64,000 nucleotides of DNA from Candidatus Magasanikbacteria bacterium CG10_big_fil_rev_8_21_14_0_10_47_10 (lineage in GTDB: Bacteria; Patescibacteriota; Patescibacteriia; Magasanikbacterales; UBA922), in NCBI GenBank assembly GCA_002773135.1, contig PFCB01000028.1, positions 4,203 to 68,202 of the forward strand, written 5' to 3'. The number at the start of each line of letters is the position of its first letter. The first letter of the stretch is position 1. The translations under genes were made by a program, and so were the position numbers. The notes under the pieces were generated by a model. That model searched no databases and had not been told where the DNA came from. It saw only the letters and a list, made by a program, of their open reading frames with translations. Positions 32,640 through 46,747 of the stretch are shown here, piece by piece.

Positions 32640-32722
32640 CCCACTTCTTCCATTTTTCCCTGGAAGTCCGCCACGGCGGACTCGGGAACCTACCAAGGAG
32701 CGCCTCTCTTCATGTTGAAGAG

Positions 32723-33645: not shown

Positions 33646-33864
33646 ATGCCGCGCGGCACCGCCCTCGCCTTCCTGCCCAATGGCGACCTGCTGGTCCTGC
33701 AGTACCGCCATGGCCATGGCGCCTTTGGCCGACCCGGCCGACTGGCCATCGTCAGCGCGGGCGCCCTTCCACCGCCGGTGTGACATGTTCCACCGCCTAC
33801 CGCATGGGGACTGGCCATCCCCTTCCATTCAATGCGTAGAATACATATTGTATTCATTGAAAAC

Positions 33865-33908: not shown

Positions 33909-34787
33909 TTATTGCAAGTAGTACCCCAAAAGCAGACAAATAGCACCAACACCACCAACCACCATGCCAATGACATCACGCTTGCGCACCTGCCGCGCTT
34001 CACGAAAAATGTACAACCCTACCATCACTGCGCCCAGCGTATAAAAAAACGCTTGCAATGGATAAAGGACTGTCGCTGGATACACAAGCAGCGCATAGTA
34101 CACCGATGAAAGCGACCCGACAATGCACAGTGACAACAATACTGAGTGCGCGTAAACCTTCTTTCCTCGCATCAAACTCCAATCGCGCTCTACGATACGC
34201 GGCACAAATGATCCTGCGCACCCCCCAATGTACCACGATGTGACGTAGGTAATTAATGGGATCCCCTTTACCGCAAAAAAATTAACCAAAAAATTGATCA
34301 CACCGACCACTAACACAAACCCGACCAGAGCGAATAGCCAGTCCTTTTGCTCTTGTGAGCGATCGGTCGATGATTTTTTATAAAATAATGTAATGGCCCC
34401 GAGTGTTGCCAGGACGCCGACCCAAACAAGCGCGCCAGGAGCTGTCCGAAAATCAAAAAACGCCCATTCTCCCAAAAAAAGAGCACTCAGTCCGACGGCC
34501 AAGCCATTGATGAAAGGCAAGAATAAAATTGTCTTCGACAAACTCAGATGAACACCCCGAGCAAAAAACCACGCCCCGATTGCGTTGAATGCTCCTATCA
34601 AAAAAACCGGTAAGAGAACCGGAACACTTTGGGTAAAGAAAAAAGCGATCATCGTGACGAGCAAGGCAGACCAAATATACATGGTATTCACCACCACGCT
34701 CGCCTTGTGCCGCGCAAGAAGCTTTTTATTGAAATACTGACTAACGATTGCCGCGAGAATTCCAAGGACAAAAATGACAGGCACCAT
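33909..34787 (-). CDS. Polytopic membrane protein (~9-10 TM; DMT/EamA-like or polysaccharide-associated permease), last gene of long minus-strand operon
   Basis: 292 aa, almost entirely hydrophobic helices. Confidence 0.4.
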   Translation of the reverse strand: MVPVIFVLGILAAIVSQYFNKKLLARHKASVVVNTMYIWSALLVTMIAFFFTQSVPVLLPVFLIGAFNAIGAWFFARGVHLSLSKTILFLPFINGLAVGLSALFLGEWAFFDFRTAPGALVWVGVLATLGAITLFYKKSSTDRSQEQKDWLFALVGFVLVVGVINFLVNFFAVKGIPLITYVTSWYIGGCAGSFVPRIVERDWSLMRGKKVYAHSVLLSLCIVGSLSSVYYALLVYPATVLYPLQAFFYTLGAVMVGLYIFREARQVRKRDVIGMVVGGVGAICLLLGYYLQ

Positions 34788-34790: not shown

Positions 34791-35546
34791 CTAACTGTTA
34801 TCCTCTGCGAGTGATTTGATATATCCTTCATTTCTTTCATACATCCCATTCAACTCCCGCCACTGTGGGTGAGCATCCACAAGCGCGCGAATATCAGCCA
34901 TTGAGCAGGGTCCTCCTGCTTCTTTGCAGGCCGCGGCAACATGTCGCAAAAAATCCAAATCTTCCGGGGTGTCCAGCGTCCATCGATATCCCGACCAATC
35001 TGCATCATGCACAATATTGCCTATAGCAAACAGAGTGGGATTCTTCCATATATAGGGCGTGACATGCTCACGCTCAGAAGAGAGCCCTGCTTCATTCCAC
35101 GCGCGTTCCAGAGCCTGAAACGAAAATACTTCAACGTCGATTCCGTCCGGATAGGTTGCCGGCTGCGTATTTGCGACATAGTCGTAGCCCCCTTTTTGAA
35201 ATTCTTGAACAATCCGGTCAATAACAGCAGGATCCATAAAAGGGCAATCGCCGGTTATTCTGATGACACTGTCGGCGTTTACTTTTTTTGCGGCCTGATA
35301 ATATCGATCAAGGACATCATCTTCACTTCCTCTGTACACCGTGAGTCCCCGCTCCTCCGCCCACGTTGCAAGCGGATCATCTTTCGCGTCAGTGGTTGTT
35401 GCCAACACAACCTGCTGAGTTGTGAGAGATCGTTTCACCGCATCCACAACATGCGCTATTGCCGGTCTGCCAGCGATATCAAGAAGCATCTTTCCCGGCA
35501 AGCGCGAAGACCCCATTCGCGCCTGAATAATAGCGACAACCTTCAT
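34791..35546 (-). CDS. CMP-nonulosonic acid synthetase-type cytidylyltransferase (NeuA/PseF/LegF/SpsF family)
   Basis: MKVVAIIQARMGSSRLPGKML N-terminal signature of acylneuraminate cytidylyltransferases; 251 aa. Confidence 0.75.
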   Translation of the reverse strand: MKVVAIIQARMGSSRLPGKMLLDIAGRPAIAHVVDAVKRSLTTQQVVLATTTDAKDDPLATWAEERGLTVYRGSEDDVLDRYYQAAKKVNADSVIRITGDCPFMDPAVIDRIVQEFQKGGYDYVANTQPATYPDGIDVEVFSFQALERAWNEAGLSSEREHVTPYIWKNPTLFAIGNIVHDADWSGYRWTLDTPEDLDFLRHVAAACKEAGGPCSMADIRALVDAHPQWRELNGMYERNEGYIKSLAEDNS

Positions 35547-36541
35547 ACGTAAGAAATAGAAATAAATCGCCCGGTCTCGTTGGACTCCTTTGCCGCAACT
35601 ATCAACCGCACGACGGCCGCACCGGAGGCAAGCGGCGTTTTTGTTTGCGTCCGCGCGTCTACGGCCTCCAAAAAATGGCGCGCTTCTTCTACATACATAT
35701 CATTAATGTCGTAATCCTCTACAAGGGGAAACTCCTCTTCATCGTGTTCCTTGGTCTTGAGAATGATTTTCTTTTCCGGCATAGACCAAAGAATAGTCCC
35801 TTTTTCGCCGACAAACTCAAAATTTCGTTGATAAAACCGCTGCAAGTAATCAAGGTGTATTTCCCCAATAGCACCGTTTTCAAATCGTAAAATCGTAGCG
35901 GCAACGTCTTCTACATCTATGTCAAGATCACTTACTGTATCAGCAAAGCAGGCAAGCTGTTTTACCGGCCCCACAAACCATGTAAGATAATCAAACTCAT
36001 GTGAATCAAGCAAAATTCCTCCACCTAATTTCTTATTTGCACTATACCCCTGTTTATAATCTTCCCAAGGATGCCAGTCTGGCAAATATTGGCCAAACTG
36101 ACAGCGAGCTGTCAAAATTTTTCCAATCGTCCCGGCATCAATAAGTTCTTTCATTTTGATAAACAATGGATAAAACTTCCAATTGCTCCCAACCATGGTG
36201 ATCAGATTCTTTTCTTTGGCTACTGCAATGAGTTGATCCATACCTTCCAATGAATGCGATACTGGCTTTTCTATAAACAAATGACACCCCTTATCTGCAC
36301 AATACAGAGCTTGCTCCATATGATATAGAGAAGGAGAGCAAACAAAAGCAATGTCAAAGGATTCGGCTTCAAACGCTTCCTCCATTGAGGGATAGACAGG
36401 AATGCCAAATTCATCTTTCAACGGCTGAATTCTGTCGGCATTCACCTCTACAATTGCCACTCCTTTTTCGCCCAACGAAATAAGATTCCTGGCGTGACGC
36501 TTTCCAATGGATCCGCCTCCCAAAACGAGAATGTGTTTCAT
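35543..36541 (-). CDS. Gfo/Idh/MocA-family NAD(P)-dependent oxidoreductase
   Basis: MKHILVLGGGSIGKRHARNL...EKPVS motif; 332 aa; start overlaps upstream stop. Confidence 0.8.
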   Translation of the reverse strand: MKHILVLGGGSIGKRHARNLISLGEKGVAIVEVNADRIQPLKDEFGIPVYPSMEEAFEAESFDIAFVCSPSLYHMEQALYCADKGCHLFIEKPVSHSLEGMDQLIAVAKEKNLITMVGSNWKFYPLFIKMKELIDAGTIGKILTARCQFGQYLPDWHPWEDYKQGYSANKKLGGGILLDSHEFDYLTWFVGPVKQLACFADTVSDLDIDVEDVAATILRFENGAIGEIHLDYLQRFYQRNFEFVGEKGTILWSMPEKKIILKTKEHDEEEFPLVEDYDINDMYVEEARHFLEAVDARTQTKTPLASGAAVVRLIVAAKESNETGRFISISYV

Positions 36542-37179
36542 AGGTAGGGCTGTATATCACAAAAAAATTGATCCTTGTTCTCAAAAAGAATAGTGCGTAA
36601 CCCCACCTCACGCGCCACCGCGATCTTGCTTTTGGAATTATCAATAAAGAGTGCCTCTTCCGGTGTCGCTCCCATCTGTTCCAGCATCTGCTCAAAAATC
36701 TCAGGACCGTCCGTTTTCATGCGGCCAACACCGGCATCGCAGCTAAACAGTATGGATTCAAATATTTCATTCAAATCGTGTTCCTGCCGGATATGGTCTC
36801 GCATTTCAACAGTTAAATCGGACAACAACCCGACACGGTATGTCTTTTGCAATTGCTTTGCAACGGTCAGCATATCGGGCCACAATGTATAGGAAGACAA
36901 ATACGCAGCAGAAAGCGCGCCCGGATTGATATCACTGTCTTCTGACAATCCAAAATGATTCATAACCCGTTGCCAAAATTCTGTTCCCTCGTATTTGCCG
37001 CGATAATAATCATTATACAGGGGGCGAACCGCTTTTGCGATATCGTCCGGGCCAAGCCTAACTTTTTGCTGCAACGCAGCCGACGCGAACGGTTCACCCT
37101 CGCTACAACAAACACCGCCCCAATCAAAAATAATGGCATGTATTTTCTCTTTCATGTTGTCTGCCGTGTCTTGTGCCAT
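36538..37179 (-). CDS. HAD-superfamily hydrolase/phosphatase
   Basis: Start at internal Met (MAQDTADN..) because the 5' part of the ORF overlaps the upstream gene; motif I IIFDWGGV (DxDGx-like). Confidence 0.65.
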   Translation of the reverse strand: MAQDTADNMKEKIHAIIFDWGGVCCSEGEPFASAALQQKVRLGPDDIAKAVRPLYNDYYRGKYEGTEFWQRVMNHFGLSEDSDINPGALSAAYLSSYTLWPDMLTVAKQLQKTYRVGLLSDLTVEMRDHIRQEHDLNEIFESILFSCDAGVGRMKTDGPEIFEQMLEQMGATPEEALFIDNSKSKIAVAREVGLRTILFENKDQFFCDIQPYL

Positions 37180-37180
37180 A

Positions 37181-39544
37181 TTATTGCGTATTACGAACAG
37201 TCCGCGGCGCGACAATGTCACCCTCGAGTGACGCGACAATTGCGTCAATTGATTCAAAAGACGCCAACATATCACACGCTCGGTCAAATACGGTCAAAAA
37301 TTCATCCACGTGTTCACGGGTATGCAAATAACTCAGAAGCACGGAGCTTGTAAATAAGATACCGGATTTATGCAAGTGTTCATATACAAATGTTTTGTAC
37401 ACGCGCGCTTCATAGTCATCTTGCAACTGAATGGTCATGACCGGATGCGGTCCGCAACCGCTCAATATGATTGGAACCTCATACTTCCGGGCAATCGCGT
37501 TGCCCCGGTCTATCATGTATTGACCAATATCAAATAAGTGGGAATGCACATCACCAAACTCCCTCATCATGGCAATGGTTTCCAGGGCGGCGACCATCCC
37601 GGGAACATAGCCCCCAAAGGTTGTGGAGACAAATACTTCATCCATCCGGCGCATATATTCCGCTTTCCCGCAAATGGCGGACAAAGGAAATCCCCCTGAA
37701 ATAGCTTTCCCAAAACACCCTATGTCTGGCGTCACACCATAATACTCCTGCGCGCCACCCAACGCCCATCGAAACCCTGTGACCATTTCGTCAAAGATAA
37801 GCAGCGCACCGTGCGCGTGCGCTATTTCCTTTATTTTTGCAAGAAAATCATCGGTTGGATGCTCGGATGATGCAGGCTCCAGTATAACCGCGCAAATTGA
37901 GTCCGGATTCTCCCGAAATATTTTTTCCAATGACGCCGGATTGTTGTACTCAAAATCATGTGTCATTGTTTTTATACTCTCTGGCACGCCATTGCTGCGC
38001 CCGGCCTTCGTGCAAATACTCCAGTCTTGCCAGCCATGATAGCCGCACTTTGCAACGTGATCTCGGCCGGTCACATATCGTGCGAGACGGATGGCGCCGC
38101 TTGTCGCGTCATTACCATTGATTAAAAAACGGCTCATTTCCGCACAAGGTACGACCTCTCGTAAAACAGTGGCCAACTCCAATTCTTTTTCCGATGGCAA
38201 TGAAAAAATAGTGCCGCGGTCAATTTGTTCTTTCACCGCCGTATTTATTCTGTTATGCGCGTAACCAAATACCATGGGACCCAGCGCCATCAGAAAGTCG
38301 AGATACTTATTTCCGTCCGCATCCCATATATGCACGCCCTGCGCGCGTGCAATCGTAAGCGGCGTTACCCCCACCACAAACTGCGTTGGTGTTTTGCTCA
38401 ATGTCTGCGATGCCCCCGGGATATATTGTTGTATTTCTTTTAATTGTTCTCGTTTGTCCATATGAATTTGCGGCGTAAAGTAAGTGATTTCATCAAACGC
38501 CGTTAAAAATTTTGTGATATCTCCAGCCCAGGCGCTATCGGTTTTCGTATACATCTCCCGCAAGACATAAAGCGTTTTAATCAAAAAATCATCCAATATA
38601 AGCACGTGCAAAAGATCCTTCTCTTGGCGCGCCAGTGGCATTTCTGCTTCATACGCGCTCAAAAATATTTTGGTCAAAGACAGCGCTGTTGTCGCAACAT
38701 CTGCAGTGGACTGATCAACAAAAAATTGCCTGCCAAACCGATAGATCGCAAACGCGACATCACGCGCACGCTGACTCACGCGCAGTGCGTCAAAATCAAG
38801 AATCGCCGCGAGCGTATCTCCTTTCATGATCACGTTGTGAGGATGCAAATCAGAATGAATAATTTGCGTTGGTAGCGCGTCGATCTTGGCTCTGTTGGCA
38901 TCAACACGGACAACAGCGGCGCGGAGCGCCGGCATGGACGCTATGACCATTTCATCTGTCTGAGTGCGCACGTCCTTCTGCTCTATGTGCTCCGCAATTT
39001 CTACAAAATCTTTCTCTGTATAGGATGGTATGACATTAAAATATGCCTTTGTCTGTTTACTATGGCCTTCAATATCAGAAGCAAGAGTGGCCTCTAATCC
39101 CGCCAGCCCCTTGTGGACCTTTGCGACTGCCATGGCAACAGACGCCAGAGCCTCCTGCGTTGGAACAAAATGAGATCCATCAATAAAACGGAATACGGTG
39201 TACAATATGCCGTGACGCTGAACATATCCCTGCCCGTCAATGGTTTTAATGGCTTCACTTACAGGAATGCCCAGATCCATCAGCGCCTCCACAACCGACA
39301 TATATCTGCGAACTTGCGCTTCGCTATCAATCAGTTGATTTCTTCGCACCAGCAATGTTTCGTTCTCAAGTACCACCTTGTAGTTGCTCGAATTTATTTC
39401 ATTTCTACTCAATTGCGTAATATCGTGAATACCACCATTCTTTCCATACGCAGCCAAAATTTCAGCAAACATGCCCCAGTCCCCGGCATACGGCTCGTAG
39501 GTGATCAGCGGGTCAGAAAAATTGTCTTTTGGGAATACTGTCAT
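37181..39544 (-). CDS. Bifunctional fusion: N-terminal APH/choline-kinase-like small-molecule kinase + C-terminal class III (PLP) aminotransferase (GSA-aminomutase-like)
   Basis: 787 aa; kinase catalytic motif IIHSDLHPHNVIM and DFD; aminotransferase-III motifs GVHIWDADGNKYLDF, LIFDEMVTGFR, CFGKAISGG (Lys). Confidence 0.75.
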   Translation of the reverse strand: MTVFPKDNFSDPLITYEPYAGDWGMFAEILAAYGKNGGIHDITQLSRNEINSSNYKVVLENETLLVRRNQLIDSEAQVRRYMSVVEALMDLGIPVSEAIKTIDGQGYVQRHGILYTVFRFIDGSHFVPTQEALASVAMAVAKVHKGLAGLEATLASDIEGHSKQTKAYFNVIPSYTEKDFVEIAEHIEQKDVRTQTDEMVIASMPALRAAVVRVDANRAKIDALPTQIIHSDLHPHNVIMKGDTLAAILDFDALRVSQRARDVAFAIYRFGRQFFVDQSTADVATTALSLTKIFLSAYEAEMPLARQEKDLLHVLILDDFLIKTLYVLREMYTKTDSAWAGDITKFLTAFDEITYFTPQIHMDKREQLKEIQQYIPGASQTLSKTPTQFVVGVTPLTIARAQGVHIWDADGNKYLDFLMALGPMVFGYAHNRINTAVKEQIDRGTIFSLPSEKELELATVLREVVPCAEMSRFLINGNDATSGAIRLARYVTGRDHVAKCGYHGWQDWSICTKAGRSNGVPESIKTMTHDFEYNNPASLEKIFRENPDSICAVILEPASSEHPTDDFLAKIKEIAHAHGALLIFDEMVTGFRWALGGAQEYYGVTPDIGCFGKAISGGFPLSAICGKAEYMRRMDEVFVSTTFGGYVPGMVAALETIAMMREFGDVHSHLFDIGQYMIDRGNAIARKYEVPIILSGCGPHPVMTIQLQDDYEARVYKTFVYEHLHKSGILFTSSVLLSYLHTREHVDEFLTVFDRACDMLASFESIDAIVASLEGDIVAPRTVRNTQ

Positions 39545-39939
39545 ACAGCTGAATAGTCCGCCTCTGAATATGAATCCGCTTTTGCCGGATCAAATAGCGT
39601 CGCACGATATTCAATGAATATCACATCTGTCAGGGCCTCCATTTCATGGTATACATCCTTTTCAATTATCACATACGACATTGGATCAATATCCTGGCGC
39701 AGATCCTCCCCTTTTCTATTTTTTGCATACAATCGAATTTGTCCGGAAATCAAAAAAAATAGCTCCGGATCTTTTGAAGGATCAATGCCGGTATGGAAAT
39801 GATTTGCAAATGTACTGCCCTGCTTTCGCGTATACAGCGTCACTTGCTTGCCGGGAAGATTCCGGAACAACTCAAAAACATCACCACGATCATCCGATGG
39901 GCTGTTTGAGACACCCTTTGTGATGGTAATGCCTTTCAT
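39541..39939 (-). CDS. Cupin-fold protein (WxcM/FdtA-like sugar 3,4-ketoisomerase-type domain)
   Basis: Start at MKGITITKG; motif SDDRGDVFELF...HFH resembles DxRGxLxxxE...HAH of FdtA/WxcM cupins. Confidence 0.5.
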   Translation of the reverse strand: MKGITITKGVSNSPSDDRGDVFELFRNLPGKQVTLYTRKQGSTFANHFHTGIDPSKDPELFFLISGQIRLYAKNRKGEDLRQDIDPMSYVIIEKDVYHEMEALTDVIFIEYRATLFDPAKADSYSEADYSAV

Positions 39940-39940
39940 A

Positions 39941-40696
39941 TTAGGTGTTGAGCGCCTCCTTAAAAAACTGCATGTTTTTGACATCATTTGACAATCCATC
40001 CTGCTTGGGTGTTTCAAAAACGAGCTGCGCATCTGATTGAATAAATCGGTTATTCAACTCGCTGCGAACCCAGGCAGCGTCAATGCGGCTCTCCCACAAA
40101 TTTGTATGCTCATCCACGGCATGAGATATGTCGCCTCCGGAAATATGAAAATATGTTGGCTTCAACGCATCCAAGCAGTCTGCTACAAATGTTTTGTAAT
40201 CAAGCCCTTGATAGACCGCCGCTTTTGCTGCCTTTTCAAAATCAAAGCAAATTGGTTTGACTGCGGCGATCTGCTTAAGCTGTTCAAGCGTTTGTGCGTA
40301 CATTGGCTGCTCGTTGGTATCAAGACCTGCCATGTTTTCTATCAGAATGCGCGGATCATCAATCCTCTCCAGCTCATGAAAAAATGATTCAAACGTATGA
40401 TTCTGCCCGGGATGAACAATAATCTTCTGCGCGCCCAGATAATCAGCAAGCCGTCTGGTTCCCTCCCATATTTTTAATTGCTCGGGGCCAATCATGAACT
40501 CGTGAAATCCGCTTGTATGGGTATGATGAATTTCAACTGGCACCTCTTGGAGCGAGTCAAAATGTTCCATTTCATCAGCGGATCCCGGGTTGTGGTACAG
40601 TTCAATAAAATCAACAATCCCTTTCTTGTATAGCAAAACGGCCTCTGTAAAAAGGTCTTTATTATTGGTCCAAAGCTTTAATCCGTACTTAATCAT
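39941..40696 (-). CDS. Xylose-isomerase-like TIM-barrel (sugar phosphate isomerase/epimerase family) protein
   Basis: Start at MIKYGLKLWT; His/Glu-rich barrel pattern (EIHHTHTSGFHE, HPG); family assignment tentative. Confidence 0.4.
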   Translation of the reverse strand: MIKYGLKLWTNNKDLFTEAVLLYKKGIVDFIELYHNPGSADEMEHFDSLQEVPVEIHHTHTSGFHEFMIGPEQLKIWEGTRRLADYLGAQKIIVHPGQNHTFESFFHELERIDDPRILIENMAGLDTNEQPMYAQTLEQLKQIAAVKPICFDFEKAAKAAVYQGLDYKTFVADCLDALKPTYFHISGGDISHAVDEHTNLWESRIDAAWVRSELNNRFIQSDAQLVFETPKQDGLSNDVKNMQFFKEALNT

Positions 40697-41154
40697 ACAG
40701 GAATAGCTTTGGTCATGTGCAGCCACGCATCATCACGCGTCCGTTCCGTAAAGCCATATTTGGAAAGAAGCCTTTGCGAGCCACTGTTTGTACGAGAAAC
40801 AATCGCGTGAATCTCTGCTCCCTTCTGCATCATGGCAAGCGTTTCTCCAAGAAGCCGCGAGCCCACGCCTTGCCCATGATATGCAGGATCAAGGGCAATG
40901 GAAAGCACATACGATCCATCATTATCAACATCATATCGGCAATACCCGATGACCTCAGCCGCAGTACGCATCACATAACAACGATTGAGCCCGCCACCTA
41001 TATATGCCTTGGTAAACCACTGAATGTGGTTTGAAAGAGCCGGTATCTCTTTGGTCCGTGCAAAGGCATTCACTTCCGAAGAATACCGAATACGCCAGAC
41101 AGCCTCTGCATCATCCGCGTTTGCTTCATCGATTGTCATTTGAGCAGGCTCCAT
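40693..41154 (-). CDS. GNAT N-acetyltransferase (PseH-like candidate)
   Basis: 153 aa; acetyl-CoA motif QGVGSRLLGETLAMMQ; position between aminotransferase and NeuB-like synthase. Confidence 0.6.
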   Translation of the reverse strand: MEPAQMTIDEANADDAEAVWRIRYSSEVNAFARTKEIPALSNHIQWFTKAYIGGGLNRCYVMRTAAEVIGYCRYDVDNDGSYVLSIALDPAYHGQGVGSRLLGETLAMMQKGAEIHAIVSRTNSGSQRLLSKYGFTERTRDDAWLHMTKAIPV

Positions 41155-41159
41155 ATGGG

Positions 41160-42263
41160 TTACAGGTCACTGCGTCCTTCCATGCCAATAATCTGACGCC
41201 ACGCGAGCGGTGTTCCGGACTCAATATCTTCCGCAGCGGCCTTTCCCAATACTTCTTCATAATACCTCGGCTGCAGCCCAAAATTCGGGCGAATCACGCG
41301 AATCGTATCCGGTGTAAAAATATCCCCTTTTTTAATATCGCGTGTCACAAAAATGGATTTTCGATATCTGATATTGTGTTCCTCCGGCTTGCTCTGGATT
41401 CCATAATTCACTTTTCCCTTTATTTTTTCGGCGCGGCGCACATCGCGCACAAATTGCGTAAATTCTGCAGGCCCCACAGAAAAATTTGCGTCAAATGTTT
41501 TGTCATCAGAATCGGCCACAACATGCTTTTCAATCATTGACGCTCCCATAATCGCCGCCTGCAATGGAATTTCACTGCCGGCGTTATTATCAGAAAATCC
41601 AACAACCACATCAAATTGCTTCGCAATATCCAGCATGGTGGCCATATTGGTGTCTTCGGGCTGAGGATCACCCGAATACGCGGTCACGCAATGAAAAATA
41701 CCAATATCACTTGCTCCATGCTGACGCAACGTATCAACAGCCAACTTGATTTCTTGTTCCGATGCAAAGCCCGTTGACATGATCACCGGCTTCCCCGTCT
41801 GCGCAATGCGTTTGAGAAGTGGAATATCAGTGACTTCGTAGGAAGCGACTTTATATAAAGGAACATCTAATGTCTCCAAAAAATCAACTGCGGTCGAATC
41901 AAATGGCGTGCTAAAAAAAACAAGATCCAATTCCTCTGCGATTTTCTGCAATGGCGCGTGCCACTCACGCGGTGTATACGCCTTTTGATAAATACTATAC
42001 AATGTCTCACCGGTCCACGAATCAGGATTACCACCACCGCCCACTTGAAAATATTCTTTTCTTGAATCAATGGTCATCCCGTCGGCAGTGTATGTTTGCA
42101 ACTTGATCGCATCCGCCCCGGCCGCGGCCGCGGCCTTCACAATATCAACCGCTTTTTCATACACGCCGCCATGATTTGCAGACATTTCGGCAATAATAAA
42201 ACACGGATTGTTTCCACCAATCTCCCGCTTCCCCTTTGGCGTGTTGATCGTAAATGTCTGCAT
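41160..42263 (-). CDS. Nonulosonic acid synthase (NeuB/PseI/LegI family, PEP-dependent) with C-terminal SAF/antifreeze-like domain
   Basis: 367 aa; CFIIAEMSANHGG, AIKLQTY motifs; SAF-like tail FVTRDIKKGDIFTPDTIRVIRP. Confidence 0.85.
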   Translation of the reverse strand: MQTFTINTPKGKREIGGNNPCFIIAEMSANHGGVYEKAVDIVKAAAAAGADAIKLQTYTADGMTIDSRKEYFQVGGGGNPDSWTGETLYSIYQKAYTPREWHAPLQKIAEELDLVFFSTPFDSTAVDFLETLDVPLYKVASYEVTDIPLLKRIAQTGKPVIMSTGFASEQEIKLAVDTLRQHGASDIGIFHCVTAYSGDPQPEDTNMATMLDIAKQFDVVVGFSDNNAGSEIPLQAAIMGASMIEKHVVADSDDKTFDANFSVGPAEFTQFVRDVRRAEKIKGKVNYGIQSKPEEHNIRYRKSIFVTRDIKKGDIFTPDTIRVIRPNFGLQPRYYEEVLGKAAAEDIESGTPLAWRQIIGMEGRSDL

Positions 42264-42272
42264 ATACGGTAG

Positions 42273-43415
42273 CTACGTGGATTGATGCCCAACGCACTCT
42301 TTTATCGTTTCAATAACATACGCTTGCTCATCGGGCTGCAAGGTTGGATATATTGGCAGTGACAAGATAGACTCATACCATTTTTCAGCAACAGGACAGT
42401 GCCCTTTTTGATATCCTAGTGAACGGTAGTATGGGTGGTAATAAACCGGAATATAGTGCACCTGCACCCACATATTTTTTGCTCTCAATGCGGCGAATAC
42501 CTCTGCCCGCTTTCCCTCTGCCGCACCGGCGAGCCGAATAACATATAAATGCCACGCGGATTGGTACAGGGAGTCGTCCGCCATGGGTGTCTCAATTTCC
42601 GTAACCGACGCAAATGCGTCATGATAGCGTGCGGCAATATCACGCCTTTTGGCAATAAACTCATTAAGCTTGCCAAGTTGACTCCTCCCCAGTGCCGCGT
42701 GGATATCGCTCAGCCGGTAATTATTGCCAAGCAACTGCATCTCATGATACCAACCCCCCGGTGATTCGGATTGCAAGTCTGTGCTCGTTATCCCATGCGT
42801 GGCAAACTGTTTCATTGTTTTATATACATGACGGTCGTTGGTCAACACTGCTCCCCCTTCCCCTGTTGTAATGCTTTTGACCGGATGAAAACTAAACGCT
42901 GTCATATCGGCAATTGATCCAACCATTTTTTCATTGTACGTTGCTCCCAGCGCGTGGCAACCATCTGCAATAACCAAGAGCCCATGACGGTCCGCGATTG
43001 CGCGAATAGCATCATAATCAACCGGACGCCCCGTATAGTCGATAGGAACAATGGCCTTTGTCCGCGGTGTGATTGCCGCTTCAATTTTTGATGGATCAAT
43101 GTTGCCGGTTGCTGGATCAATATCAACAAAAATGGGCGTTGCTCCCTGGAACAATGCGGCGTTCCCGGTTGCGGCAAACGTCATGGGGGATGTAATAATT
43201 TCATCACCCGGGCCAATGCCCGCGGCAACATACGCGGCATGCAGGGCCGCTGTCCCGTTTGAAACGGCAACCGCATATGACGCGCCACAAAAATCCGCCA
43301 GCGCTTCTTCAAACGCTGTTACTGCCGGCCCCTGAGTCAGATAGTCCGAGCGAAGAACACTGACAACAGCATCAATATCATCATCTCCAATAGTTTGTTT
43401 GCCGTAGGATATCAT
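42273..43415 (-). CDS. DegT/DnrJ/EryC1-family PLP aminotransferase (PseC/LegC-like UDP-4-keto-sugar aminotransferase)
   Basis: 380 aa; MISYGKQTIGDDDIDAVVSVLRSDYLTQGP N-terminus typical of PseC; HPVKS(I)TTGEGG PLP-Lys. Confidence 0.85.
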   Translation of the reverse strand: MISYGKQTIGDDDIDAVVSVLRSDYLTQGPAVTAFEEALADFCGASYAVAVSNGTAALHAAYVAAGIGPGDEIITSPMTFAATGNAALFQGATPIFVDIDPATGNIDPSKIEAAITPRTKAIVPIDYTGRPVDYDAIRAIADRHGLLVIADGCHALGATYNEKMVGSIADMTAFSFHPVKSITTGEGGAVLTNDRHVYKTMKQFATHGITSTDLQSESPGGWYHEMQLLGNNYRLSDIHAALGRSQLGKLNEFIAKRRDIAARYHDAFASVTEIETPMADDSLYQSAWHLYVIRLAGAAEGKRAEVFAALRAKNMWVQVHYIPVYYHPYYRSLGYQKGHCPVAEKWYESILSLPIYPTLQPDEQAYVIETIKECVGHQST

Positions 43416-44416
43416 ATTGATGCAAGAAGCTCTTTTAATGTCTGCTCATTGAGCCACACTGGATTATTGTCACTGGAGTAAAAAAAATCTTTGCGTACAT
43501 CAGGCAAATTCTCGTATACACTTCGCAGCCGTTCATCCCCATGTGGCAAAATAACAAAATGCCGATCCGTCTCTTTTGCGTTTCTCGCTTCCTCCTTTGT
43601 CACCAAGGTCTCATGCATTTTTTCTCCGGGACGAATCCCAACTTCATGAATCCGGCACTCCGGAGCAACAATAGCAATAAACTCTTGAACCTTCATGCTT
43701 GGAATTTTTGGAATAAACATTTCTCCGCCGTGCATGTGTTCCAAGGCGTGGAGAACCAAGTCAACACCGGCATCAAGCGTGATCCAAAATCGTGTCATTT
43801 CCGAATGTGTCAAGGTGATCGCGCCGGTTGCTCGTTGACGTTCAATCACTTGCAACAGGCTTCCGCGACTTCCCAACACATTGCCATAGCGCACAACACT
43901 CATGCGTGTCGCGCGATCATTAAAGGCGGTTGAACTGCTCACAACCAATTTTTCAGCGCAAAGCTTTGTCGCGCCGTACAAATTTGCCGGCCCTGCCGCC
44001 TTGTCGGTCGATACCAGTACCAACCGTTGTACATTATTGTCCACTGCCGCCTGAATCACGTTTTGCGTCCCCAAAATATTTGTTTTAATCGCCTCAAACG
44101 GATTATACTCAAGCGCGGGCACCTGCTTGAGCGCGGCGGCATGCACGACATAGTCCACGCCACAAAATGCGCTGCGGAGTCTATCAATATCACGAACATC
44201 ACCAATAAAAAAACGAAGTTTACCCTGCGGATCCTCAATATCAGTCATCATGACTGATTGCTTGAGCTCATCACGACTAAAAATAATAATGCGCCGCGCA
44301 TCGCTGTCCGCCAGCAAGCGTCGAATAAACTGCTGACCGAATGATCCGGTCCCGCCGGTGATCAAAATTGACTTATTTTTGAGAAATTCGAGAGACATAG
44401 AGTGGTTAAAAGACAA
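43412..44416 (-). CDS. UDP-N-acetylglucosamine 4,6-dehydratase (PseB/FlaA1-type short-form)
   Basis: 334 aa; KSILITGGTGSFGQQF signature. Confidence 0.85.
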   Translation of the reverse strand: MSFNHSMSLEFLKNKSILITGGTGSFGQQFIRRLLADSDARRIIIFSRDELKQSVMMTDIEDPQGKLRFFIGDVRDIDRLRSAFCGVDYVVHAAALKQVPALEYNPFEAIKTNILGTQNVIQAAVDNNVQRLVLVSTDKAAGPANLYGATKLCAEKLVVSSSTAFNDRATRMSVVRYGNVLGSRGSLLQVIERQRATGAITLTHSEMTRFWITLDAGVDLVLHALEHMHGGEMFIPKIPSMKVQEFIAIVAPECRIHEVGIRPGEKMHETLVTKEEARNAKETDRHFVILPHGDERLRSVYENLPDVRKDFFYSSDNNPVWLNEQTLKELLASI

Positions 44417-44463
44417 AGAATATCATAGCACCTTTTGGTGCGAAAAGCAAGGGCGTGGAGAGG

Positions 44464-45561
44464 TTATTTTTCATATGTATTTCTTTCCCTAATTATTGCG
44501 AGTATCTGCTCAGCCACGCGTCCTTTTCCGTACAAGTCGCGCCACTGAATATCTTTGGTATACATCGTTTTTGCGGCTGATGCCATTGCCTCAGGACTCA
44601 CGTCAGATAAGCAATTCATCCCCGCCTCAACAGTCTCCGGCCGCTCCGTGCGTACCCGAATTGTAACACAGGGAACATGCAAAATGCTGGCTTCTTCTTG
44701 CAAACCACCGGAATCTGTAACAATAAGAGCCGCGTGTGCCTGGAGCTGCAAAAAATCAAGGTACCCCATAGGCTCAATGGTGCGAACAGCGTCAGGAACA
44801 TCAAGTCCAAAGGATTGAATATTATGTTTTGTCCGCGGATGCACAGGGAGCACAAGCGGCATCTGCAGTTCCTCCGATATACGCGACAACCCGAGCAAAA
44901 TGTTGTTCAGGACATTTTTTTGGTCGACATTTTCTGCCCGATGCGCTGTCACCAATACGTACTTCTTCTTTTCAAGTCCAAGCATGCTGCACACATTTTC
45001 ACGTGATTCGGATATCGCAAGATTTTGATAAACCGCATCTGACACAGTATTCCCGGTTACATATACCTTCTCTGCCGCTATCCCTTCATCCAAAAGATTT
45101 GTTTTTGCAATTCCCGTCGGCGCAAACAGATACTCGGCGAGATGATCTGTAAGGATCCTATTTCTTTCCTCTATCATGTTCATATCCCCACTGCGTAAAC
45201 CGGCTTCTACATGCCCAATCGGTATCTGCAATTTGTTTGCCGCCAACGCCCCGGCAAGCACGGTATTTGTATCGCCCTGCACCAACACAATATCGGGGCA
45301 GGCCTGCTTCAACACAGTCTCCAAAGCTCTCATCATATACCCCATTTGTGACGCATAGTCACGACTCCCCACACGCACGTTATGCGCAGGCGGGGAAAGG
45401 CCAAGATCGTCAAAAAAGGCGCCATCCATTGTGTGATCATAATGCTGTCCCGTATGTATCAAAACAAACGCGACCCCGTTACTCTCACAGGCCCGAATAA
45501 CCGGCGACATTTTGATAATTTCCGGGCGCGTTCCTACAATAATGGCGACAGTATAGGGCAT
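44464..45561 (-). CDS. UDP-N-acetylglucosamine 2-epimerase family (WecB/NeuC/LegG-type)
   Basis: 365 aa; MPYTVAIIVGTRPEIIKMSPVI N-terminus, HVEAGLRS motif. Confidence 0.85.
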   Translation of the reverse strand: MPYTVAIIVGTRPEIIKMSPVIRACESNGVAFVLIHTGQHYDHTMDGAFFDDLGLSPPAHNVRVGSRDYASQMGYMMRALETVLKQACPDIVLVQGDTNTVLAGALAANKLQIPIGHVEAGLRSGDMNMIEERNRILTDHLAEYLFAPTGIAKTNLLDEGIAAEKVYVTGNTVSDAVYQNLAISESRENVCSMLGLEKKKYVLVTAHRAENVDQKNVLNNILLGLSRISEELQMPLVLPVHPRTKHNIQSFGLDVPDAVRTIEPMGYLDFLQLQAHAALIVTDSGGLQEEASILHVPCVTIRVRTERPETVEAGMNCLSDVSPEAMASAAKTMYTKDIQWRDLYGKGRVAEQILAIIRERNTYEK

Positions 45562-45562: not shown

Positions 45563-46747
45563 TCAAAAATTTAAATGGCGCAATGTATGAAAAAGTGATA
45601 CATATCGCGCCGTGGTATTACGCACATGAAATATCTCAGCCTCATGATCCTTTCTGATCGGGTGTTCATCACCGCAAATCAAGCCCGCCATATATGTGGC
45701 AAGTGCCTCTGTCTCTGAGTAAGAAAATGAACGATATCCAACTTGAGTAAGAACCGCCGCTGTCGGGCTGTTGTCTGGCGTTATTCCAATAATCGCACTT
45801 CCACTCCCAACATAATCTATCACCTTTGATGGGAGAAACGGACTATCCGGATAGTTAGCGTCAATTGCAATCAGGCAGTCTGCCCGAGTCATATGTTCCA
45901 AGCTTGTTTCATACGAAACCGGGTCAGATACCATTACAATATCCGCAAGGTCATACTTCTTTACCAGATTCATTACATCATCCTTTCCATAGCCGGAATA
46001 GGGATTGCTTGCACCAATAAGATGTACGCGCACCCGTGATCTCAGCTCCGGCTTTTCCCGCAGCATACGGCTCAGAGAATCAAACAAGACAGAAGGGGTA
46101 CGCTGTTTGTAAAAAGCGCCGATGTGGCTCAACACAAATTTTGAACGGCCAGGCTTCGCCGCCGCGGGATATTCAGAATAACAATGTGGCACAACCAGTG
46201 CCTTCTCTTGGAAAGAAGCCGGGTATTTACTCATTACCACTCTTTTTGCCACGTCATTGGTAAAAATAATACTGTCACTCTGCTTCATGACAAATGCTTC
46301 ACGTCTTTTTTCCAAAATACCTCCCATGCCGGAAAATGCCTTATATGGATTGTCGATCCATGGATCACTAAAATGAGAGACAAAAGGTCGCTTCAAAATC
46401 TTTTTGAGCATGGCTCCCAGAATGTTGCTATCCTGCGGATTGGAAAATGAAAATATCACATCAATATCATGTTCCGCGCAAATAGCAACAACTCGTTTTT
46501 TGAGATCCCGAAAATACCGCGTCCTGTACATGGCTCGCTTGAATCGGCCAAGCAGGCCACTCCCACCGCATGAAAACTGGGGGATGAAATATACCGGAAA
46601 GTCGCTTTTATACACCTGCTCGCTTTCATACGTAACCACTACCGGATCAATCCCCTGCTTGTGCCATTCCGGTAACATTTTGCCAATTAAAATAGCTTGC
46701 GGGCGAATGGCCGGTGGTGTCCAGAAGCTGAGTACAAGAATCTTCAT
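45563..46747 (-). CDS. GT-B-fold glycosyltransferase-like protein
   Basis: Start at MKILVLSFWTPP; C-terminal half resembles GT1/GT4 nucleotide-binding domain (LPSKVIDYVGSGSAIIGI). Confidence 0.45.
   Translation of the reverse strand: MKILVLSFWTPPAIRPQAILIGKMLPEWHKQGIDPVVVTYESEQVYKSDFPVYFIPQFSCGGSGLLGRFKRAMYRTRYFRDLKKRVVAICAEHDIDVIFSFSNPQDSNILGAMLKKILKRPFVSHFSDPWIDNPYKAFSGMGGILEKRREAFVMKQSDSIIFTNDVAKRVVMSKYPASFQEKALVVPHCYSEYPAAAKPGRSKFVLSHIGAFYKQRTPSVLFDSLSRMLREKPELRSRVRVHLIGASNPYSGYGKDDVMNLVKKYDLADIVMVSDPVSYETSLEHMTRADCLIAIDANYPDSPFLPSKVIDYVGSGSAIIGITPDNSPTAAVLTQVGYRSFSYSETEALATYMAGLICGDEHPIRKDHEAEIFHVRNTTARYVSLFHTLRHLNF

Follow-up and report, generated by a model that had tools for sequence, protein, structure and literature searches.

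A predicted pseudaminic-acid-type nonulosonate locus with a conserved, putative side-chain-tailoring module in Candidatus Magasanikbacteria

Which nonulosonic acid might be made by a compact gene run in a Candidatus Magasanikbacteria MAG, a member of the candidate phyla radiation (CPR), and by which enzymes? The run lies in the 64,000-nucleotide stretch of DNA analysed here (the window), in which 11 co-directional, tightly packed minus-strand ORFs fill positions 34791-45561. Their junctions measure -4, -4, +1, -4, +1, -4, +20, +9, -4 and +65 nt, and the gene order is identical in two independent assemblies, in agreement with the original prediction of eleven co-directional genes. That prediction counted the genes correctly, but left the largest one undescribed (37181-39544, 787 aa). 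Pfam matches far beyond chance are found for Polysacc_synt_2 (1e-93), DegT (3e-128), NeuB (3e-75) with SAF, CTP_transf_3 (2e-33), Gfo/Idh/MocA (1e-22 to 5e-26), HAD (1.5e-12), GNAT (~2e-11) and Epimerase_2 (2e-105).

The core of the locus is, by sequence, pseudaminic and not legionaminic, because PseB, PseC and PseI exceed their NCBIfam equivalog cut-offs and their closest solved relatives are Pse enzymes. PseB (43412-44398; 328 aa from ATG), an inverting UDP-GlcNAc 4,6-dehydratase/5-epimerase, scores 428.4 with TIGR03589 (cut-off 407.75) and 71.8 with the LegB model (cut-off 475). Among solved structures, H. pylori FlaA1/PseB (2GN4, 336 bits) is closest to it, ahead of CapE/FnlA-type (~230) and PglF-type (~122) enzymes. 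The PseB ORF reaches further, to a TTG at 44416. PseC (42273-43415; 380 aa), the UDP-4-keto-6-deoxy-AltNAc 4-aminotransferase, scores 487.2 with TIGR03588 (cut-off 423.5) and 238 with the LegC family (cut-off 420). PseI (41160-42263; 367 aa), a pseudaminic acid synthase with NeuB and SAF domains, scores 406.6 with TIGR03586 (cut-off 340.25) and 273 with NeuB_NnaB (cut-off 399.65), and the Pse synthase 8H2C (250 bits) is its best structural match, ahead of SpsE (180) and NeuB (149). Thus, a nonulosonic-acid locus was correctly recognized, with a dehydratase, aminotransferase and synthase that group with Pse enzymes rather than with dTDP-sugar pathways or Neu5Ac synthases. The proposed mixture of pseudaminic and legionaminic features was not found, and a hybrid pathway was rejected: the LegB, LegC, NeuB/LegI and NeuC/LegG models of NCBIfam all score far under their cut-offs at the locus, whereas PseB, PseC and PseI pass.

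The 2-epimerase gene (44464-45561; 365 aa) had been read as a WecB/NeuC-type enzyme of the LegG route that takes the place of a PseG-type hydrolase. Its product is a WecB/MnaA-type non-hydrolysing UDP-GlcNAc 2-epimerase, with 378.5 bits for TIGR00236 (cut-off 210) versus 89.3 for NeuC (cut-off 235.9), and 371 bits for the non-hydrolysing M. jannaschii epimerase 4NEQ versus 39.5 for the hydrolysing LegG 5XVS. None of the related loci has a WecB homologue beside the module. The LegG route is unsupported because the enzyme is of the non-hydrolysing type and is missing from related loci. If the epimerase were nonetheless LegG-like, it would hydrolyse and 2-epimerise the UDP-diacetamido sugar, and PseI would then produce a C5 epimer of Pse with acinetaminic-like stereochemistry. 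Such a route would fit the lack of PseG and the co-directional position of the epimerase just 65 nt upstream of PseB, and by our own reasoning an L-altro sugar that is 2-epimerised would chemically yield the L-glycero-L-altro series. However, we regard it as very unlikely, because every test (TIGR00236, NeuC, and 4NEQ versus 5XVS) returns a non-hydrolysing epimerase, because an Epimerase_2 gene occurs in none of the related loci that likewise lack PseG, and because all Leg-specific models fail. Most likely, WecB is part of the surrounding glycopolymer cluster rather than of the nonulosonate module, and supplies UDP-ManNAc to the polymer, since it is absent beside related modules, is separated from PseB by the largest intergenic gap of the run (65 nt), and is adjoined by teichoic-acid-like genes (TagD-like and TagF-like).

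How, then, would the pathway proceed from the PseC product to the substrate of PseI? The small GNAT N-acetyltransferase (40693-41139; 148 aa) is an acetyltransferase, as originally stated, but it is PseH-like only by position and by a 29.3-bit match to the PseH model TIGR03585 (cut-off 93.1), and no PseH structure was matched among solved structures. The next gene (39941-40696; 251 aa) encodes a TIM-barrel metalloenzyme that resembles endonuclease IV. Its TIM fold is upheld by an AF2 model (pLDDT 96), whereas the previously suggested likeness to xylose isomerases is weak in Pfam (17.7, cut-off 31.1), and the top fold match is endonuclease IV (3AAM, TM 0.72). The family profile also matches Endo IV (E=4e-6), with H57, H95, E120, D152, H184, D195, H197 and E228 aligned as ligands, and the protein is predicted to carry an Endo-IV-type metal-phosphoesterase site.

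The distribution of this TIM-barrel family suggests a role. The gene adjoins NeuB or cytidylyltransferase genes in five nonulosonate loci (L095, L117, L118, L119 and L120), three of which have no APH kinase or class-III aminotransferase (L117, L118 and L120). An HMM built from 10 PseG-like sequences found no PseG-like gene in the 64-kb window, nor in the TIM-type loci to which it was applied (L095, L105 and L117-L120). Among the nonulosonate loci compared, PseG, the TIM-barrel protein and DUF218 are mutually exclusive, and we therefore consider the TIM-barrel protein a candidate UDP-sugar hydrolase, non-orthologous to PseG, that would replace it; a weak PseG-like match (17 bits) on one contig with a GNAT-TIM fusion counts against this exclusion. 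GNAT domains homologous to the one in our locus are fused to the N terminus of TIM-barrel proteins (P0392, P0431 and P0457), much as in PseG-GNAT fusions of the PseH-PseG type. The TIM-barrel protein is thus a more plausible candidate for the PseG step than is the 2-epimerase.

Alternatively, the TIM-barrel protein might be a metal-dependent sugar epimerase or isomerase that acts, for example, on the carbon beside a keto group of an intermediate, with PseG activity provided elsewhere or by another unrecognised protein. L-xylulose-5-P 3-epimerase, D-allulose 3-epimerase and xylose isomerase match the fold at TM 0.6-0.7; E120, D152, H184 and E228 are invariant in the family, a set that also corresponds to the E-D-H-E pattern of ketose 3-epimerases; and the replacement of TIM by DUF218 in some loci indicates that other solutions exist. 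We consider this alternative less likely, because endonuclease IV is the best match by both fold and profile and the ligand motifs D-x-H and H-x-G align with it, because loci L117 and L120 hold the TIM-barrel gene without an oxidoreductase that could provide a keto intermediate, and because the fusion to an N-acetyltransferase mirrors PseH-PseG fusions. PseG or PseF could also be encoded elsewhere in the genome, because the window covers 64 kb of a 95-kb contig from an incomplete MAG.

The remaining genes form the putative tailoring module. A small beta-rich protein (39541-39939; 132 aa) has sub-cut-off matches to WbuC (23, cut-off 42) and Polysacc_synt_C (26.8, cut-off 28.7). The earlier description of it as a cupin is therefore weakly supported, and its proposed FdtA/WxcM likeness is not, as no such match was found in Pfam or NCBIfam. 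No homologue is present in any related locus, and unrelated Cupin_2 genes fill the same position ahead of the APH gene in two loci (L088 and L090). The 787-aa protein is an APH-family kinase fused to a class-III aminotransferase. The APH small-molecule kinase domain (residues 1-360, 38465-39544; Pfam APH 1.2e-19) contains HSDLHPHN and DFD motifs that are invariant across the family, and its AF2 model (pLDDT 94) is closest to homoserine kinase II, N-acetylhexosamine 1-kinase and aminopropanol kinase. Stand-alone relatives of about 360 aa are always encoded directly upstream of the aminotransferase. The aminotransferase domain, AT3 (residues 361-787, 37181-38464; Aminotran_3 1.4e-50), is a GSA-aminomutase-like PLP enzyme with an invariant catalytic Lys (GKAISGG) and FDE motif. 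It is not HemL, because TIGR00713 scores 255 (cut-off 527). GSA-AM (207 bits) is its closest solved relative, followed by PctV, FumI and GenB C-6' aminotransferases; solved relatives such as GSA-AM, GenB and FumI aminate aldehydes or ketones remote from a carboxylate.

A HAD-IA hydrolase (36538-37179; 213 aa; Pfam Hydrolase 1.5e-12) is always encoded directly downstream of AT3 in APH-type loci. In the family alignment, the Asp nucleophile, the Ser of motif II, the Lys of motif III and the Asp of motif IV are conserved, whereas in motif I, which is atypical and reads DWGG here, Gly takes the place of the Asp+2 general acid in 17/17 sequences. This general acid is expected of a sugar-phosphate phosphatase, and its absence counts against the route proposed below. 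The HAD gene is followed by that of a Gfo/Idh/MocA NAD(P) oxidoreductase (35543-36541; 332 aa; Pfam 1e-22 to 5e-26), whose best NCBIfam neighbours, both sub-cut-off, are inositol 2-dehydrogenase (132 bits) and UDP-GlcNAc 3-dehydrogenase (108 bits); the HAD and Gfo/Idh/MocA families had been named correctly at the outset. The last gene (34791-35546; 251 aa; CTP_transf_3 1.9e-33) encodes a presumed CMP-nonulosonate synthetase of the SpsF type, not of the NeuA/PseF type as first assigned. PseF was rejected with 28.5 bits (cut-off 205.7), and the top structure is an uncharacterised cytidylyltransferase (6OEW, 141 bits). In B. subtilis, spsF is required for legionaminic acid use, but not for its synthesis (PMC7439481).

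The module, [cupin]-APH-AT3-HAD-Gfo-SpsF-type cytidylyltransferase, is conserved in about 20 independent metagenomic loci, in which the APH-AT3-HAD order recurs, usually with Gfo and the cytidylyltransferase (CTP). On every contig that extends far enough it adjoins a PseI/NeuB gene, and in some loci PseB and PseC as well. Gfo adjoins CTP in L094, L095, L102 and L119, and Rosetta-stone fusions join Gfo-CTP-AT3 (P0021), CTP-APH-AT3 (P0002), GNAT-CTP-AT3 (P0053) and AKR-CTP-AT3 (P0286). CTP-AT3 fusions comprise at least 8000 clusters, and their CTP domain is homologous to our cytidylyltransferase (150-250 bits). Genomes from several phyla, both cultured and MAG, have the order PseB-PseC-(GNAT-AKR)-CTP-AT3-PseG-PseI, and L. 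pneumophila Sg6/12 LPS loci share this arrangement (PMC3694923). In most related Pse-type loci, no cytidylyltransferase other than the SpsF-like enzyme was found; L003 and L017 have a second one. Additional acyltransferases, GNAT or FemAB-like, are found with AT3 loci. Counting against the route proposed below, AT3 homologues (35-43% identity) are also found outside nonulosonate clusters (L006, L116 and L122). Loci without APH and HAD keep the same Gfo-or-AKR, CTP and AT3 set; therefore, the kinase and phosphatase are not needed for simple oxidation and amination. Synteny and fusions thus agree with the earlier expectation of a non-canonical product made by extra enzymes, though not with hybrid Pse/Leg stereochemistry.

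These observations are consistent with the following route. By equivalog-level homology, PseB and PseC would convert UDP-GlcNAc to UDP-4-amino-4,6-dideoxy-L-AltNAc, which the small GNAT, judging from its position and its fusion to TIM barrels elsewhere, may N-acylate. The TIM-barrel metalloenzyme may stand in for the missing PseG to free the hexose from UDP, and PseI, by homology, would join it with PEP. Canonical PseF appears to be absent, and the conserved module would complete the sugar. The Gfo/Idh/MocA dehydrogenase would oxidize a side-chain hydroxyl (most likely the C8-OH) and so form a methyl ketone, from which the class-III aminotransferase would make an amine, and the SpsF-type enzyme would activate the tailored product with CMP after oxidation and amination. 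The APH kinase and atypical HAD would bracket the PLP step, and transient phosphorylation is probable. By analogy with two systems, we infer that C8 is oxidized and aminated before the sugar is activated with CMP. EpaA (CTP_transf_3 and aldo-keto reductase) acts together with EpaB (SDR) to epimerise Pse5Ac7Ac at C8, as established by complementation and NMR (PMC12053666), and the O-antigen of Flexibacter/Tenacibaculum maritimum contains the Pse-like 8-amino-3,5,7,8,9-pentadeoxy-L-manno-nonulosonate (PMC3210612).

The constant pairing of kinase and PLP domain across this AT3 subclade, in which APH is without exception fused to AT3 or encoded right next to it, admits a different chemistry. APH might phosphorylate the C8-OH of a nonulosonate (or hexose) with a free N7 amine, and AT3 might be an O-phospho-amino-alcohol phospho-lyase that eliminates phosphate and ammonia to leave a 7-keto-8-deoxy side chain, whose ketone Gfo would reduce; the product would then be deaminated and deoxygenated, not aminated. 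Class-III-fold phospho-lyases are the partners of the mycobacterial aminopropanol kinase and of human hydroxylysine kinase, the former kinase (6EF6, from the aminoacetone microcompartment) is among the nearest APH folds, and the Pse tail C7(NH2)-C8(OH)-C9H3 is a substituted 1-amino-2-propanol. However, the nearest relatives of AT3 are GSA-aminomutase and true transaminases, AT3 is 40-45% identical to AT3s from kinase-less loci, the HAD, as conserved as the kinase, would have no role, and we know of no such deaminated, deoxygenated nonulosonate. This chemistry is therefore unlikely.

We judge it similarly improbable that the six downstream genes, from cupin to cytidylyltransferase, bypass the nonulosonate and instead yield a small amino alcohol or aminocyclitol, either free or CDP/CMP-activated, that decorates the polymer, with a plain Pse5Ac7Ac and a PseF encoded elsewhere. 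A kinase, dehydrogenase, aminotransferase and HAD phosphatase follow the logic of phosphoserine/serinol-phosphate-type pathways, Gfo is nearest to inositol 2-dehydrogenases, the same cluster contains the TagD-like and TagF-like genes for phosphodiester substituents, and AT3 relatives exist in the three non-nonulosonate contexts mentioned above. However, to our knowledge all CTP_transf_3 enzymes of known function activate 2-keto-3-deoxy-ulosonic acids, and the SpsF-like enzyme is the sole cytidylyltransferase of most related Pse-type loci. The constant proximity of the module to NeuB/PseI genes and the EpaA precedent, which ties this domain combination to Pse itself, also argue for tailoring of the nonulosonate.

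Genes around the run are suggestive of a glycopolymer. Directly downstream of the cytidylyltransferase, a 292-aa multi-pass membrane protein (33909-34787, minus strand) has no Pfam or NCBIfam match, and homologues of it (family F7) lie beside the module in L088, L090 and L094; a 291-aa gene without a family match has the same position in L119 and is a counterpart by position. Farther away (52410-56451, minus strand), two KpsS/KpsC-like Capsule_synth proteins (PF05159, 8e-5 and 2.4e-10) flank a FemAB-like protein (8e-21), and a FemAB-like and Capsule_synth-like pair also follows PseI in L009. KpsS1, a homologue of KpsS, has been characterised as a pseudaminyltransferase (PMC12887879); the KpsS/KpsC-like proteins are candidate nonulosonate transferases, and the FemAB-like protein is a candidate acyl/aminoacyl transferase of the same cluster. 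Judged from gene content, unrelated enzymes take the place of two standard Pse enzymes, and a kinase/aminotransferase/phosphatase/oxidoreductase/cytidylyltransferase module is added. With moderate confidence, we propose that the product of the locus would be a pseudaminic-acid-type nonulosonate, modified on its side chain and activated with CMP, that serves a large ABC-exported glycopolymer of the Magasanikbacteria cell.

The array is composed of eleven co-directional genes on the minus strand (34791-45561), packed with almost no intergenic space as the original prediction stated; successive junctions measure -4, -4, +1, -4, +1, -4, +20, +9, -4 and +65 nt. Its gene order is identical in two independent assemblies (JGI 3300004210 and SRR6240789), and the NCBI record of the 787-amino-acid protein that it encodes comes from a Candidatus Magasanikbacteria MAG. 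Pfam and NCBIfam matches are very strong for most of the genes, which shows that the array is genuine and that its open reading frames are no chance collection. A scan for promoters and terminators gave counts equal to the shuffle background, with terminators only modestly above it.

Three of the six enzymes that define the pseudaminic acid (Pse) pathway pass their NCBIfam cut-offs, namely PseB (TIGR03589, 428.4 versus 407.75), PseC (TIGR03588, 487.2 versus 423.5) and PseI (TIGR03586, 406.6 versus 340.25), and PseG and PseF fail. The best solved relative of PseB is the H. pylori enzyme (2GN4, 336 bits; PglF-type enzymes reach about 122), and that of PseI is the pseudaminic acid synthase 8H2C (250 bits; SpsE 180, NeuB 149). 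The predicted nonulosonate identity therefore stands: the dehydratase, aminotransferase and synthase are Pse-type, and no grouping with Neu5Ac synthases or unrelated dTDP-sugar enzymes is seen. In contrast, the idea of mixed pseudaminic and legionaminic features does not survive, because the models for LegB (71.8, cut-off 475), the LegC family (238, cut-off 420), NeuB_NnaB (273, cut-off 399.65) and NeuC all remain below their cut-offs. The eleven genes include no hexapeptide-repeat protein that could represent a LegH/PglD-type left-handed beta-helix acetyltransferase. Their sole acetyltransferase is a small GNAT protein (40693-41139), which occupies the place of PseH, scores 29.3 with the PseH model TIGR03585 (cut-off 93.1) and matches no PseH structure. 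The cytidylyltransferase (CTP, 34791-35546) scores 28.5 with the PseF model TIGR03584 (cut-off 205.7) and belongs to an SpsF-like branch of the same superfamily, CTP_transf_3.

Compared with the canonical CMP-Pse pathway of Helicobacter pylori and Campylobacter jejuni (PseB, C, H, G, I and F), the array shares equivalog-level PseB, PseC and PseI with a GNAT in the PseH position, and thus a common product up to the synthase, a 5,7-diamino-9-deoxy nonulosonate of the L-manno series, as well as a CMP-activated end product. It lacks PseG, which is a GT-B hydrolase, and a PseF-type synthetase, and no PseH is recognizable. Unlike the canonical pathway, it includes an endonuclease-IV-like TIM barrel, the SpsF-type cytidylyltransferase and five further enzymes. 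Judged by its sequences, the array follows the pseudaminic pathway up to the synthase step and is not a legionaminic one. This is held with much higher confidence than the explanation as a whole, in which a Pse core is joined by a tailoring module of a kinase (APH), a class-III PLP aminotransferase (AT3), a HAD hydrolase (36538-37179), a Gfo/Idh/MocA oxidoreductase (Gfo, 35543-36541) and CTP. We slightly favor that explanation, and hold its exact chemistry with lower confidence.

The 365-amino-acid epimerase encoded at 44464-45561 had been taken as a sign of the LegG route, yet by every measure it is a non-hydrolyzing enzyme. It scores 378.5 with the wecB model TIGR00236 (cut-off 210) and 89.3 with the NeuC model TIGR03568, below the cut-off of 235.9. 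The structure nearest to it is M. jannaschii 4NEQ (371 bits), and epimerases of the WbpI type and CapG come next; the hydrolyzing LegG structure 5XVS reaches 39.5 bits. On these cut-offs and PDB comparisons, a Leg/NeuC route was rejected. The gap between the epimerase gene and pseB, at +65 nt, is the widest in the array, and an Epimerase_2 gene beside the module is absent from all related loci searched. Most likely, the epimerase belongs to the surrounding polymer and supplies UDP-ManNAc, as it adjoins TagD/TagF-like genes. A homologue of the window's putative cupin is likewise absent from every related locus searched, and the cupin is left out of the argument.

A PseG model built from 10 PseG-like proteins finds no match in the 64-kb window or in related loci of the TIM-barrel type (L095, L105 and L117-L120). 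The GT-B protein at 45563-46747 was considered as a PseG and rejected: it has weak GT4 matches only, matches neither the PDB nor the PseG model, and is missing from related loci. The 251-amino-acid TIM barrel (39941-40696) scores 17.7 with Pfam PF01261, below the cut-off of 31.1. A sequence search of the PDB found no match for it, so its structure was predicted instead. Endonuclease IV (3AAM, TM 0.72) is the nearest fold to the AF2 model (pLDDT 96.3), and the family profile matches Endo IV with E = 4e-6, with eight of the nine metal ligands aligned. The barrel differs from Endo IV in that it is shorter, has Lys in place of His182, has no DNA-repair setting and is always found in nonulosonate (NulO) clusters, where some relatives are fused to a GNAT.

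The TIM family is common in Patescibacteria (119 matches). Its gene adjoins NeuB/CTP genes in Magasanikbacteria, Staskawiczbacteria, one Bacteroidetes MAG and one Firestonebacteria MAG, and some of these loci have no APH or AT3. In three proteins (P0392, P0431 and P0457), the barrel forms the C-terminal part of a fusion with a GNAT that is homologous to that of the window, which parallels the PseG-GNAT fusions of canonical clusters. Across all the gathered NulO loci, no two of the PseG-like (12 loci), TIM (about 7) and DUF218 (8) proteins occur together, except for a weak 17-bit PseG-like match on one GNAT-TIM contig. We infer that the barrel acts as a metal-dependent phosphoesterase and releases the hexose from UDP. 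Alternatively, it is possible that the barrel is an epimerase, or that PseG is encoded elsewhere. The DUF218 (YdcF/SanA-like) genes adjoin PseI in kinase-type loci that lack both PseG and TIM (L088, L090, L091, L093, L094, L102 and L104; for example, L090 5643-6305), and their products are possibly a third solution for the PseG step.

Although the count of eleven genes was right, the gene at 37181-39544 was absent from the original description. It encodes the 787-amino-acid protein, of which residues 1-360 form an APH-family kinase with an invariant Brenner motif (HSDLHPHN) and DFD, and residues 361-787 form AT3, a member of the GSA-aminomutase branch with a conserved catalytic Lys. The fusion is real: three assemblies yield the same translation, and P0002 is an independent CTP-APH-AT3 fusion. 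AT3 was also considered as HemL, and this was rejected: scores with TIGR00713 (254.8) and PRK06209 (331) are below the cut-offs of 527.3 and 486, and the setting is a sugar cluster, not heme synthesis.

According to domain mapping of homologues, AT3 very often shares a polypeptide with a cytidylyltransferase domain that is homologous (150-250 bits) to the SpsF-like enzyme, which has a gene of its own in the window. Further arrangements are Gfo-CTP-AT3 (P0021), GNAT-CTP-AT3 (P0053 and P0058) and, with an aldo-keto reductase (AKR), AKR-CTP-AT3 (P0286 and others). A second protein search, seeded with the fusion from Flexibacter sp., returned at least 8000 clusters at E <= 1e-30. The closest AT3 relatives in GTDB genomes lie in Pse-type clusters with the order PseB-PseC-x-CTP-AT3-PseG-x-PseI, which is seen in Coriobacteriia, in Paenibacillus, Janthinobacterium, Undibacterium, Colwellia and Endozoicomonas, and in others. 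For example, the order in Janthinobacterium sp. CG3 is PseB, PseC, GNAT, aldo-keto reductase, CTP, AT3, a PseG-GNAT fusion, PseI, a FemAB-like protein and a Capsule_synth-like protein. A gene table for the LPS loci of Legionella pneumophila Sg6/Sg12 lists the same genes as these clusters (PMC3694923). A literature search for functional studies of a 'glutamate-1-semialdehyde aminotransferase' with SpsF in Pse clusters found none, only gene tables and a note on Moritella. Plasmid matches were set aside: those of Piscirickettsia are true HemL, that of S. fredii lies outside a NulO cluster, and a haloarchaeal one has PIG-L, DegT and sulfotransferase genes as neighbors. The sequence families of the module are abundant in databases under generic names; the novelty lies in the function proposed for them and in the proposed PseG replacement.

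The SpsF-like enzyme is the sole cytidylyltransferase found in most Pse-type CTP-AT3 loci (L003 and L017 have a second), and on this count it must be the presumptive CMP-nonulosonate synthetase. In B. subtilis, spsF is required for the use of legionaminic acid and not for its synthesis (PMC7439481), which fits the predicted role. The Sps pathway of that organism (SpsM, C, D, G, E and F) shares with the array an SpsF-type cytidylyltransferase, UDP-linked precursors and a GNAT. Unlike the array, it makes legionaminic acid, uses a retaining dehydratase and a PseG-like SpsG, and lacks genes for an aminotransferase-III, a kinase, a HAD protein and Gfo (PMC7439481).

There is a 4-nt overlap between the CTP and Gfo genes, and the Pse core adjoins them. 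In A. baumannii, Pse5Ac7Ac is converted to 8-epi-Pse5Ac7Ac by EpaA, in which CTP_transf_3 is joined to an aldo-keto reductase, and by EpaB, an SDR, as established by complementation and NMR (PMC12053666), and a Pse cluster in Moritella has an SpsF-like/AKR fusion followed by a dehydrogenase (PMC7371886). These cases imply that cytidylyltransferases of this type occur together with redox enzymes acting on C8 and activate the sugar altered there. Like the EpaA/EpaB system, which resides in prophages, the array couples CTP_transf_3 to an NAD(P) oxidoreductase, and a tailored sugar would have its own activating enzyme. The coupling is a fusion in EpaA and a 4-nt gene overlap in the array, with fusions in its relatives (Gfo-CTP-AT3 and AKR-CTP-AT3). 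Compared by domain description, EpaA/EpaB combine an aldo-keto reductase and an SDR with epimerization as the outcome, whereas the array has Gfo with AT3, a kinase and a HAD protein, and by analogy amination or some other change would be expected. A search for EpaA-like genes in a phage collection gave a single distant, unannotated match.

A sugar of the corresponding kind exists in nature: 8-amino-3,5,7,8,9-pentadeoxy-L-manno-nonulosonate occurs in the O-antigen of Flexibacter (Tenacibaculum) maritimum (PMC3210612). It is Pse-like with a third amino group at C8, which is the product expected from oxidation of the C8 hydroxyl and transamination, and by this analogy we hypothesize that it is tied to the module. 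The O-antigen paper contains no class-III aminotransferase detail, and no named Tenacibaculum is among the matches listed for the search seeded with the Flexibacter sp. fusion. Solved relatives of AT3 in the PDB aminate carbonyls remote from a carboxylate. Oxidation of the C8 hydroxyl yields a methyl ketone, a typical substrate of class-III transaminases. A third amine would have to be acylated, and the extra GNAT or FemAB-like acyltransferases of AT3 loci agree with this. Because of the C8 chemistry of EpaA/EpaB, the natural 8-amino sugar, the AT3 relatives and these acyltransferases, a route is proposed in which Gfo (an AKR elsewhere) would oxidize the sugar to an 8-keto form, AT3 would turn this into the 8-amino form, and CTP would make the CMP-sugar from the 8-amino product.

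The window's APH domain belongs to a family of kinases of about 360 amino acids (40 representatives at E <= 1e-30, 1511 at E <= 1e-3). About 20 metagenomic loci share the order APH-AT3-HAD without exception, usually with Gfo and CTP next, and in some loci a small cupin or the TIM barrel precedes. On every contig of sufficient length these genes lie beside PseI, and at some loci PseB/PseC are neighbors too. The AT3 proteins of kinase-type loci score 520-660 bits against the window AT3, versus at most 410 for kinase-less loci, and therefore form a distinct subclade. A sequence search of the PDB found no match for the APH domain; the structure predicted instead (AF2, pLDDT 94) has homoserine kinase II, N-acetylhexosamine 1-kinase, antibiotic kinases and aminopropanol kinase as its nearest folds. 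In all 17 HAD sequences, motif I is DWGG and not DxD; the nucleophilic Asp and motifs II-IV are kept, and the general acid at Asp+2 is absent. For this reason, the HAD protein is no textbook sugar-phosphate phosphatase. The DWGG motif in the window gene and the 16 related genes recalls phosphonatase (DWAGT) more than sugar phosphatases.

The kinase and HAD proteins are add-ons of one subclade, and the simplest reading is that they would bring about a transient phosphorylation around the PLP step. A serious rival is that APH and AT3 act as a kinase/phospho-lyase pair. Such pairs are known for amino alcohols, namely the mycobacterial aminopropanol kinase and phospho-lyase, and human hydroxylysine kinase and AGXT2L2. 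As in these pairs, APH is genetically coupled to a PLP enzyme of the class-III fold, and aminopropanol kinase is among its fold neighbors. Unlike them, the PLP domain belongs to the GSA-aminomutase/transaminase branch, the pathway concerns a sugar and not catabolism, and HAD, oxidoreductase and cytidylyltransferase are obligatory partners in the module. Neither transient phosphorylation nor a kinase/phospho-lyase pair accounts for every observation. We put forward only tentatively, and consider rather doubtful, the joint proposal that the TIM barrel is an unrecognized PseG replacement in Patescibacteria and some other phyla and that the module turns the C7-C9 side chain of Pse, via phosphorylated intermediates, into an undescribed sugar. 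Candidates for that sugar under the proposal are an 8-amino (triamino) and a 7-keto/8-deoxy nonulosonate.

The array sits within a longer minus-strand glycopolymer cluster (about 25.4-64 kb) that includes GT4 glycosyltransferases, an MsbA/HepA-like ABC exporter, methyltransferase-containing proteins, TagF-like and TagD-like genes, and UDP-sugar dehydrogenases with a TviC-like epimerase. At 52410-56451, a gene for a FemAB-like protein (aminoacyl-transferase family) lies between two KpsS/KpsC-like genes. The same FemAB-like and Capsule_synth-like pair follows PseI in Janthinobacterium sp. CG3 (L009 13867-16395). A FemAB-like protein with KpsS1-type nonulosonate transferases could mean that an amino sugar is aminoacylated. 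Three adjacent genes at 48017-50207 encode a TagD-like cytidylyltransferase (most similar to RfaE domain II, with a score under the cut-off), a 181-amino-acid protein with a weak pyruvate-kinase-barrel/HpcH-like match, and a TagF-like glycerophosphotransferase, which suggests a phosphodiester-linked substituent. A Na+/H+ exchanger gene (46749-48011) also lies amid the glycan genes.

A 292-amino-acid multi-pass membrane protein without a family match (33909-34787) is kept beside the module in L088, L090 and L094, and a 291-amino-acid gene product in L119, also without a family match and encoded directly after the cytidylyltransferase, resembles it in size. A 3.5-kb island (30345-33828) of 63-64% G+C, in a contig of 42-50% G+C, breaks the minus-strand glycan cluster. 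On its plus strand (30426-32639), the island encodes a secreted protein of 737 amino acids that is rich in Cys and carries six CxxDxDCDG repeats of the MopE type ('putative metal-binding'). Two independent short assemblies stop about 0.4 kb past the membrane-protein gene, just inside the island, which is possibly a horizontal acquisition or a mis-join.

The window also contains a near-complete de novo purine pathway (3832-25269), which is unusual for a CPR bacterium. It includes two uncommon fusions, one of a PurQ-like GATase, SAICAR synthetase and AIR carboxylase (908 amino acids, 10973-13699) and one of GARS and GART (629 amino acids, 17468-19357), and a DUF559 endonuclease-like gene (16858-17406) is inserted among the purine genes.

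Further tailoring genes are found in related loci (L093/L102 2400-8000; L094 6003-7445; L119 5214-7253; L120 906-2327 and 8762-10276). Among them are genes for B12-radical-SAM enzymes and ATP-grasp, for an AMP-binding ligase together with a phosphopantetheinyl transferase and a protein of the VOC fold, for a SerA-like dehydrogenase with a class-I/II aminotransferase, and for PseA/HisH/HisF-like sets that form acetamidino groups. They point to nonulosonates that vary widely in N-acyl and C-methyl groups among groundwater CPR bacteria. NulO loci of CPR bacteria and Bacteroidetes also carry fusions of a DegT aminotransferase with a PseB-like dehydratase (775 amino acids) and of NeuB with CTP_transf_3 (about 600 amino acids), as in L117 (2126-4453 and 10407-12215) and L118 (2861-4642).

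Nonulosonic acids are major surface determinants of flagellin, capsule and LPS, and are targets of vaccines, phages and antibody therapy. To our knowledge, the known biosynthetic repertoire for these sugars is small. The locus exposes a widespread enzyme set without assigned function, with at least 8000 cytidylyltransferase/aminotransferase-III fusion clusters. Synteny and fusion tie this set to pseudaminic acid, and suggest a genetic basis for triamino or side-chain-modified nonulosonates. If the side-chain reading of the module is true, a function would be assigned to a very large unannotated family of CTP_transf_3-aminotransferase-III fusions, and if the TIM barrel replaces PseG, the recognition of Pse pathways in seemingly 'incomplete' genomes would change. 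For the organism itself, the locus means that an ultra-small CPR bacterium devotes more than 30 kb to an elaborate acidic glycopolymer.
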